A stretch of 14,504 nucleotides of DNA, taken from IMG/VR virus record IMGVR_UViG_2529292834_000008, positions 1 through 14,504 of that record; one strand, written 5' to 3'. The first letter of the stretch is position 1. The number at the start of each line of letters is the position of its first letter. The position numbers were made by a program. The DNA is from a virus. Taxonomy: Duplodnaviria > Heunggongvirae > Uroviricota > Caudoviricetes. Positions 1 to 3,000 of the stretch are shown here, one piece after another.

Positions 1-3000
1 CGGAACGTTATCGTTCACACGGACCGTGGAGGCCAGTACTGTTCAGCAGATTATCAGGCGCAACTGAAGCGGCATAATCTGCGTGGAAGTATGAGCGCAA
101 AAGGTTGCTGCTACGATAATGCCTGCGTGGAAAGCTTCTTTCATTCGCTGAAAGTGGAATGTATCCATGGAGAACACTTTATCAGCCGGGAAATAATGCG
201 GGCAACGGTGTTTAATTATATCGAATGTGATTACAATCGGTGGCGGCGGCACAGTTGGTGTGGCGGCCTCAGTCCGGAACAATTTGAAAACAAGAACCTC
301 GCTTAGGCCTGTGTCCATATTACGTGGGTAGGATCATCCACCCTAAAACTATGACCAAGTATGAGATCGTCATCGTAACTACAATTGCCGTGAATATGTA
401 TGATTTGCTCGTCTGGAACGGCATAGATCTGCTGCAAGGTATTTGTATAATTAAATGAAAAATAGATGCTTTCTCTTGGTATGGGCGGGATGTATTGCTT
501 AGGATTGTAAGCATCGGCTATGTTAATCCCTTTAACCCAATCAGCGAATTGCTCCTTCAAACGAGCTGACAGCATTTGTGTGATTTTATTTACTTCATAT
601 TGGTAATCGTGATGATAAGCATCGCTCCAATCATCGGTATTGTATGAAGCCAAAAATATCTCACTGTTTTGAAGGATAAGCTCATAATCAATTTCACCTA
701 AAGCATTTTCTAACTCATTCCACTCGTCCCCAGCAGGAATGTATTCTTCTATCGCGTCATATAGATCTTGGTCATTTTTTTCTACATACGACTTAAAGTG
801 CTTGTATCCTGTTGGTAAGCCATGACGCATGTCAAATCCATTTCCTATTATGTAAAGCCTCATTGTTTTTCCCTTAGTCGAATTGTATAAAAATACTAAC
901 ATGGCCTGCTCCACGTTGACTACTATCCCCTCCTTTGAGTAATGCCTTCATCAGATGTAACAACATTTGCGAGCTTCCACAGTTCGCTCAAAGCGGACTA
1001 GAAGGTTAGCTTGCGTCGGACTTGGCGTATTTAAAGAAGTGCTGGTGGAGACTGGTTGTTGTGTTCCATTTCTACAGAACAAAATCACAGAAACTATACC
1101 CAATAGTTATATTGAATCAATGATGAGACAGCCTCATATTTATCAGGACTGGTGTACGTCCAATACAGGAGGTTGTCGTGCTGGTTCTCAAATGTGCGCT
1201 AGCTATTGCGGCTGTAATGGCAATTTATTGTCTTGCTGTTGTTCTTACGGATCGCCTTTCTGATTGATTTTATATTGGCGAGGTGACGTGAGTTAAGTAG
1301 AATTGCTGCGGGTGCTTGAGGCTATCTGCCTCAGGCATGAACACCAAAAGGCAGATAGAGAAAAGCCCCAGTTAACATTACGCGTCCTGCAAGACGCTTA
1401 ACATTAATCTGAGGCCAATTTCATGCTAGACACATGTAGGTTAGCCTCTTACGTGCCGAAAGGCAAGGAGAAGCAGGCTATGAAGCAGCAAAAGGCGATG
1501 TTAATCGCCCTGATCGTCATCTGTTTAACCGTCATAGTGACGGCACTGGTAACGAGGAAAGACCTCTGCGAGGTACGAATCCGAACCGGCCAGACGGAGG
1601 TCGCTGTCTTCACAGCTTACGAACCTGAGGAGTAAGAGACCAGGCGAGGGAGAAATCCCTCGCCACCTCTGATGTGTCAGGCATCCTCAACGCACCCGCA
1701 CTTAACCCGCTTCGGCGGGTTTTTCGTCGCATAATGAGGTTGTAATTTTAGCTACCATTAGACTATCCTAAGGATCTCAAACAGATCTATTTTGCATCAA
1801 ATTTGGTGCATGGCTTTGCCAATAATCGGAAAACAAAAGGACTCATTAGTATGAGCTGCCCACTCAAAAAACACACGCGGTTGAGTATTCCGCCTCGCGA
1901 TAAAAGCGTTGTGGCAGTCCCTCGCCCAGCGATTGATGAAAACTGCGCACATCGTGAACAAGTGAAAAATGCTTTTGATTTCGGTTTTTCTCGTTATGAG
2001 AAAGCCATGGAAGAACTTTCAAAAGTGTAATGATGGGTATTGTGCTCTATGGCTGAGATTGTTGAAGGAGTGCATTACCTTACGGTTGATGATCTTGTTG
2101 AAATCAATCGTTCCCTAATTGAATTACAGACGCCAGATGAGCCCGTTGGTGTTCTGAGTCCAGATAACTTAAGTTCTTCTCAGGCCCGTCCCAGCATGGT
2201 TCGATGGTATGAACAGACTAATGACATGTTTGTACTGGCATCGGTATTGATTGAAAGTCTGATTCAGAATCATCCGTTTGCTAATGCGAACAAACGAACA
2301 GCTATGATGGCTGGTTACGTCTTCTTGTTGTTGAATGGCTATGAGTTAACAGCACCAGGCGATGAAATCGTGGAAATGGCAGAGGGACTGGCCTGCAAAA
2401 CCTATACTCGAGAAGATCTCGAGAACTGGTTGTGTTATTGGTCTCGCGCGTATGACAGCCGGGAATTATGTAAAACAGGCGCAACTATTGTTTTGTATGA
2501 AACTATCAAGCTTAAAATAGAACAGCAAAACTAAAGGTGCTTCCAATGAAAACCCGCTTCGGCGGGTTTTGTTTTTTCCTGGCATTCTGGTTTACAATTC
2601 GCACGCCAGCCTGAACAACTGGCACCTGCTGCGCCAGCAGAGACAACCGATGGCGCACAAAAACAAATTTCACAATTCTGATACCGACCTTGCCATCCGG
2701 CACGGGCGGCGTTCACACGCATTTAAAACCGACTGGTACCAACACCCACCATGTACTGAAGAACAGGCCGAATGGCTAATTCATAACTACCGCAGGCGCG
2801 GATACGAGGTTAAGAAAGCCCTCAGCCTCGATTATCGTCACTGGATAATCTATGTCAGGCTCCCTTATTCCGAACGCCCACCGCGTCCGTCCCGCACATT
2901 CCAGCAACGCATCTGGAGGTAACGTGCGGGTATTACTTCGACCTGTTCCGGTACCGGAACTTGGGCTGGTGGTGCTAAAACCGGGCCGTGAATCCATGCA

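Follow-up and report, generated by a model that had tools for sequence, protein, structure and literature searches.

The window analysed here, the full 14,504 nucleotides (nt) of the IMG/VR virus record IMGVR_UViG_2529292834_000008 (Caudoviricetes), opens inside an insertion sequence (IS) of the IS3 type and runs directly into a short minus-strand open reading frame (ORF) that begins like an AbiH abortive-infection protein. This arrangement raises the question of whether IS3 simply inserted into a prophage-borne abiH gene, the rest of which lies beyond the element, as an initial annotation of the sequence had proposed, or whether the missing part of the gene was lost. Our data indicate that positions 337-863 very probably represent what is left of a prophage AbiH gene at its 5' end (175 of 289 codons) and are non-functional, and that IS3 has taken the place of 6.86 kb of prophage DNA in the lineage sharing this junction. 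On the evidence from relatives, the underlying event appears to have been an IS3-associated deletion or rearrangement and not a clean insertion.

Positions 1-336 (plus strand) are the right-hand 336 bp of IS3. They encode the last 101 residues of the transposase orfB (1-306), which match the Pfam integrase-core families rve_2, rve_3 and rve, and the right terminal inverted repeat closes at 336 (...TACGTGGGTAGGATCA; last letters GGATCA). This succession of a DDE/rve C-terminus and an IS3 terminal inverted repeat assigns the element to the IS3 family, and its end is 100% identical to copies that are carried by 24 complete genomes and annotated there as 'IS3-like element IS3 family transposase'. 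The whole element of 1,258 bp can be seen in FORC_031 (locus L004, 7893-9150). In the window, IS3 adjoins abiH at 336/337 and the two are convergently oriented. When a 300-bp stretch across this junction (window 187-486) was searched among 5,426 complete Escherichia coli genomes, the set on which all genome counts below are based, it was recovered from 27 of them at 99.7-100% identity. An assembly artefact at this point is ruled out by its presence in 27 independent complete genomes. The same junction was found in one IMG/VR contig with the standard arrangement of the Qin site, and the junction pattern gave no match in genome_contigs and none in metagenome_contigs. The strains carrying it belong mostly to enterotoxigenic E. 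coli (ETEC) O6:H16, which suggests that the junction genomes stem from one ancestral event.

On the other side of the junction, the minus-strand ORF spans 914 to 303, with a probable start at ATG 863-861 (MRLYIIGNGFDMRHGL) and an AAGGG ribosome-binding site ahead of it at 875-871. Read from this ATG, 175 whole abiH codons (863-339) are followed by one hybrid junction codon (338-336), ten IS3-encoded codons (DPTHVIWTQA) and a stop at 305-303, which gives a fusion product of 186 amino acids. Positions 337-863 (minus strand) thus hold codons 1-175 of a 289-codon gene for an AbiH (SIR2-like) protein plus two nucleotides of codon 176, as judged from the Pfam match and from identity to intact alleles, and the read-through tail of the truncated ORF lies in the IS3 terminal repeat (303-336, minus strand), as seen from the ORF list, the sequence and RefSeq. 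The extent of the ORF and its count of about 175 codons had been correctly given in the initial annotation, as had its truncation at the IS3 terminal repeat; the abiH codons end exactly where IS3 ends, at 336/337. The 5' leader of abiH occupies 864-917 (minus strand). For the remnant, the Prokaryotic Genome Annotation Pipeline (PGAP) chose the upstream ATG 902; a hairpin scan showed this codon to fall within a terminator-like hairpin (917-898). Since many homologues are exactly 289 residues long and open with MRLYIIGNGFD, sequence comparison favours ATG 863 over ATG 902 as the true start. RefSeq lists the IS3-fused stump as WP_000959907.1 (199 amino acids, 'bacteriophage abortive infection AbiH family protein', not marked as a pseudogene), and 137 blocks of the assembly collection have an index entry for precisely this truncated protein.

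Membership in the AbiH family, which the initial annotation had proposed from the N-terminal motif, is strongly supported. The remnant scores 165 bits against Pfam AbiH (PF14253; gathering cut-off 30.9, E 4.5e-48) and also matches the AbiH model of PADLOC (E 1.3e-20). It covers only positions 1-183 of the 260 in the Pfam profile and is shorter than the roughly 290-350 residues of a complete member, so that the window holds a fragment of an AbiH protein and not an intact one. For comparison, the allele of strain ECCWS199 is intact, with 302 residues as annotated (WP_001297700.1) and 289 from the homologous ATG; it reaches 233 bits against the Pfam family (profile 1-258 of 260) and matches PHROG 19951 over its full length (1-288 of 288). 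Many E. coli genomes have the locus uninterrupted and match window 337-1300 at 100% identity, and the 527 nt of the gene that remain do not differ from intact alleles at any position. When 5.8 billion proteins were searched, 1,613 relatives were returned, and among the best 120, from which lengths were read, all homologues with full coverage measure 288-323 residues (41-92% identity); the few shorter entries in this group are partial and none shares the end point of the remnant. Thus, homologues are not naturally as short as about 180 residues, which would have spoken against a truncation. A tblastn search of 50,697 records of sequenced phages gave no match to AbiH.

As to how much is missing, a quantity that the initial annotation had left to be estimated, comparison with the intact allele gives about 114 residues (39%), that is the last 114 codons or the 3' 343 nt of abiH. 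The remnant retains the N-terminal GNGFD, FNYT and HIHG motifs, and the conserved C-terminal motifs are gone. Seventeen near-invariant residues fall in the lost part (N193, D201, R203, Y214, F215, T218, F219, K220, V244, G246, H247, S248, L249, D253, Y256, F257 and W270 in P0001 numbering), among them the conserved block V244-G246-H247-S248-L249 ... D253 ... Y256-F257.

AbiH has been described as resembling sirtuins and as possibly depleting NAD+ (PMC13064643), and a preprint assigns it to the SIR2 subfamily with immune function ('SIRim'; bioRxiv 10.1101/2024.09.18.613514); its mechanism has had no experimental test (PMC13064643). The fold that we predicted agrees with the resemblance to sirtuins and with the SIRim assignment. 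An AlphaFold2 model of the intact allele (predicted local distance difference test 88.9, predicted template modelling score 0.85) displays a SIR2-type Rossmann fold. G20, G22, F23, D24, N151, Y152, T153, H171 and G172 are invariant and N21 is nearly so, and these positions, mapped by eye, look similar to SIR2 motifs. In this model, the cut after residue 188 (P0001 numbering) removes the predicted strands 239-245, 269-274 and 294-298 together with the helices between them, which are three of the six predicted core beta-strands. With these strands and the C-terminal motifs lost, the product of the remnant should neither fold nor act. The intact protein would most likely consume NAD+ when triggered by phage and thereby cause abortive infection.

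To distinguish insertion from deletion, the relatives are informative. The 5' part of abiH is present in 92 genomes, the 3' 361 nt in 65 and the IS3/abiH junction in 27. Since 92 minus 27 equals 65, and since no junction strain is found among the 60 listed carriers of the 3' part, the junction genomes appear to have lost the 3' part of the gene. The two flanks of IS3 in FORC_031 read ...AAAGAC and TCCACC..., and the 3-bp target-site duplication that the initial annotation had led one to expect is therefore absent there (GAC versus TCC); the window itself displays one IS3 end only. The far side of IS3 in FORC_031 is codon 3 of the prophage exonuclease gene, and alignment to an intact Qin-like prophage (locus L016) showed that IS3 replaces positions 9967-16827, that is 6,861 bp. 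The lost stretch comprises the exonuclease gene from codon 3, ydfD, dicB, ydfB, ydfA, two helix-turn-helix regulators (a repressor and a cro-like protein), ydaT, the replisome organiser and replication genes, DUF977, a 463-residue orphan gene and the last 343 nt of abiH. The IMG/VR contig with the junction is arranged as in FORC_031.

The far side of IS3 is not the same in every assembly: at loci L006, L009 and L010 it is an unrelated region with amino-acid permease and GST genes and not the prophage exonuclease. Where far flanks were mapped (L004, L010, L037) they correspond either to codon 3 of the exonuclease gene or to an unrelated part of the chromosome, and the gene tables of the other loci agree. 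In TW10598, IS3 itself is split by ISEc62. The variable far side and the split element point to repeated IS-driven rearrangement in the junction lineage. The IS activity seen at this locus in relatives (4334-5031 of L002, 5829-9120 of L003, and beyond 10600 in L006, L009 and L010) comprises, besides the split element and the alternative far side, copies of IS1 inside abiH at a second site in five genomes.

Taken together, the missing 3' part, the loss of 6,861 bp and the mismatched flanks in relatives argue for a deletion or rearrangement, and the relatives examined do not support the idea that IS3 simply inserted and that the remainder of abiH follows it. The mismatch of the flanks (GAC versus TCC) is best accounted for by recombination between two copies. 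According to this scenario, two directly oriented IS3 copies would have resided in the prophage, one interrupting the exonuclease gene at codon 3 and one interrupting abiH, and recombination between them would have removed the 6.86 kb and left a single IS3 with the hybrid flanks GAC and TCC. The remaining abiH ORF would then be fused to 11 IS3-encoded codons (the hybrid one included) and is presumed to be inactive. The genome from which the window derives probably shares this deletion.

The strongest competitor of the two-copy route is an adjacent deletion, in which intramolecular transposition of one IS3 copy would have produced the same end state. A single remaining IS3, unmatched flanks and a contiguous loss of 6.86 kb are predicted by both routes, and no intermediate genome was found for either. 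IS3-family elements transpose by a copy-out-paste-in mechanism through a circular intermediate, so that classical adjacent deletions are less typical of them than is homologous recombination between two copies, and the lineage is one of repeated IS3-associated rearrangement with a far side that differs among assemblies. We therefore consider an adjacent deletion unlikely, with recombination between two copies remaining our preferred route.

A simple insertion of IS3 would predict that abiH in the source genome is split, with the remaining 114 codons just past IS3 and a 3-bp duplication (TCC). Such a state is in fact required as an ancestor by the two-copy route, and the window would be compatible with it, as it starts inside IS3 and the far side of its own IS3 copy lies outside. 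In addition, the arrangement of the window differs from that of every complete genome searched, none of the complete E. coli genomes holding the whole window collinearly. However, no genome with abiH on both sides of IS3 was found; the balance of 92 carriers as 65 plus 27 and the 60 listed accessions imply that the 3' part is absent from all 27 junction genomes; and the mapped far flanks lead to the exonuclease site or to unrelated DNA. Moreover, the junction sequence of the window is identical to that of the junction genomes, which implies shared descent. For these reasons a simple insertion in the source genome is very improbable. A naturally short, functional AbiH, or a fusion that retains activity (NAD binding or interference with other SIR2 defences), can be dismissed almost completely: PGAP does call an ordinary coding sequence and not a pseudogene, and start, ribosome-binding site and N-terminal motifs are kept in a 5' part free of further mutations, but homologue lengths and profile coverage reject a natural short form, no shorter entry among the best hits ends at the same point, 17 near-invariant residues and three predicted core strands are lost, and the C-terminal 11 residues come from the IS3 repeat.

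The interpretation of the ORF as a non-functional remnant left by an IS3-associated deletion is thus the one that we favour, and besides the two properties of the window just mentioned (its start inside IS3 and the missing collinear genome) several other points weigh against it. The disjointness of the junction and the 3' part rests on the counts and on 60 of the 65 accessions. Sequence decay cannot confirm the loss of function, the retained 527 nt being unchanged. The putative catalytic residues were assigned to SIR2 motifs by eye. A profile search of the PDB yielded only hits above E 0.1 to unrelated proteins and no SIR2, and a Pfam scan of all 43 aligned members with E-values up to 10 retrieved no SIR2 family. 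To our knowledge, no AbiH protein has a demonstrated biochemical activity. A scan of NCBIfam likewise returned nothing relevant to a SIR2 link. With the PDB, Pfam and NCBIfam searches negative, a relationship between AbiH and SIR2 at the sequence level was rejected and the link applies at the level of the fold only.

The prophage origin of the gene, which had been suggested from the window itself, was borne out by its relatives. Intact abiH resides in a Qin-like lambdoid prophage at rspB-ydfJ, with the replication module and DUF977 on one side and hokD on the other, and it is encoded on the strand opposite to the early-right operon. This location is typical of an accessory (moron) position. 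Homologues elsewhere have other neighbours, namely HNH_2 in Yersinia, AAA_22/SEC-C in Aeromonas and none in Serratia, and this variability is consistent with AbiH being a stand-alone gene inside defence islands. An obligate two-gene system is, in general, not supported, as homologues at 43-75% identity have differing neighbours.

In E. coli and Klebsiella prophages, the 463-residue orphan gene lies 89-90 bp downstream of abiH on the same strand, and the two genes travel as a pair between these prophages. Distant relatives of the orphan (49-55% identity) are located 17-18 bp downstream of the Abi-type gene Abi_2 (PF07751) in Pantoea and of the uncharacterised DUF3644 in Dickeya, and one distant relative stands alone in a P2-type prophage. 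The orphan gene is outside the window and a fold search with its product was uninformative. It is conceivable, if rather doubtful, that the destroyed locus was a two-gene cassette of AbiH and the orphan, of which the window keeps only the AbiH stump. In that case, the pattern would suggest a defence component not yet described, for which the upstream partner gene can be exchanged.

Downstream of the remnant, the window changes its prophage background. Window 1-1722 matches the Qin-site prophage at 99.8%, and from 1290 onward it matches a second lambdoid prophage (located by ompW/trp in isolate L1_E925) at 99.5-99.9%. The two share a 433-bp hok/sok region (1290-1722), and from diagnostic differences the switch could be narrowed to 1513-1690, inside hokD. 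In the ETEC isolate L1_E925, the two prophages are mutually inverted, with about 300 kb between them. A search of genome_contigs with a 196-nt pattern spanning the hok crossover gave no match; in IMG/VR it gave nine contigs, none of them collinear with the window. If real, the join could be the result of an inversion or of phage mosaicism; otherwise, assembly collapse of the 433-bp repeat is possible.

Several other genes of the window, all on the plus strand, were identified. A complete hok/sok type I toxin-antitoxin locus occupies 1310-1635, with sok at 1310-1485 (Rfam, 122 bits) and the coding sequence of the HokD toxin at 1480-1635 (Pfam HOK_GEF, E 1.2e-23). In a nin-like region of the prophage, a Fic/Doc pair (1851-2534) consists of a 'death-on-curing' toxin gene at 2049-2534 (Pfam Fic, E 6.6e-12) and a 59-residue ORF with no family match at 1851-2030, which is the presumed antitoxin. 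Just downstream of the antiterminator Q, a eukaryote-type Ser/Thr kinase gene (Pkinase, E 2e-33) overlaps by four nucleotides with a gene for a PP2C phosphatase (E 2.1e-14); this pair (5176-6680) looks like a prophage accessory pair. A gene for an N6/N4 DNA methyltransferase (7248-8297) precedes three tRNA genes (8347-8419, 8503-8575 and 8582-8653; Ile, Lys and Gly as annotated in a related genome), which are followed by the lysis genes.

As a finding, the AbiH remnant is ordinary and already known: AbiH and IS3 are each well known, and the allele is annotated in 27 complete genomes. Its biological weight is small, since it represents one more defence gene lost to IS activity in a decaying cryptic prophage. 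Two practical aspects may be of use. The stump passes the Pfam threshold and is listed by RefSeq as an ordinary 'AbiH family protein', and for this reason counts of functional AbiH in ETEC O6:H16 genomes may come out too high in surveys based on hidden Markov models. Together with the 6.86-kb deletion mapped in three relatives, the unique IS3/abiH junction constitutes a clean lineage marker for the ETEC O6:H16 clade.

When compared with known systems, the remnant and its intact allele belong to the same Pfam family as AbiH of Lactococcus lactis, PF14253, which is the 'AbiH' of PADLOC and DefenseFinder. The lactococcal AbiH, reportedly the subject of work by Prevots et al. in 1996, is a single-gene abortive-infection determinant on a mobile element, and the type of carriage is the same here; it was in Lactococcus that AbiH was originally discovered. 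Among AbiH proteins, abortive-infection resistance has been reported only for the lactococcal one (PMC13064643). In contrast to it, the gene described here has an enterobacterial host and a lambdoid prophage as carrier, and the copy in the window is cut to 175 residues. Relative to the PADLOC AbiH model (343 positions, of which only 143-316 aligned), the E. coli protein is shorter (289 residues). The SIR2 anti-phage NADases (ThsA of Thoeris, DSR2, SIR2-HerA/Nezha, KomC and Avs5-SIR2; 'SIRim') have no detectable sequence similarity to AbiH, and, unlike them, AbiH has neither a fused sensor domain nor an obligatory partner and its NADase activity is putative.

The carrier corresponds to Qin (Kim), the cryptic prophage of E. 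coli K-12, which occupies the same chromosomal site from rspB to ydfJ and has in common with the variant the genes int, xis, exonuclease, ydfD, dicB, ydfA, ydfB, hokD, ydfU and Q. Unlike Qin of K-12, the variant carries abiH and the 463-residue orphan gene between DUF977 and hokD, and in the junction lineage its immunity and replication region is deleted. The terminal repeats of E. coli IS3, an element of 1,258 bp, are imperfect (TGATCTTACCCA... and ...TGGGTAGGATCA), and its orfAB transposase is produced through programmed frameshifting. In contrast to a canonical IS3 insertion, the 3-bp duplication is absent, the two flanks being derived from different sites; otherwise, nothing about the element is unusual. 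As in IS-mediated deletions between IS copies, one IS remains, its flanks are hybrid and the DNA in between is lost.
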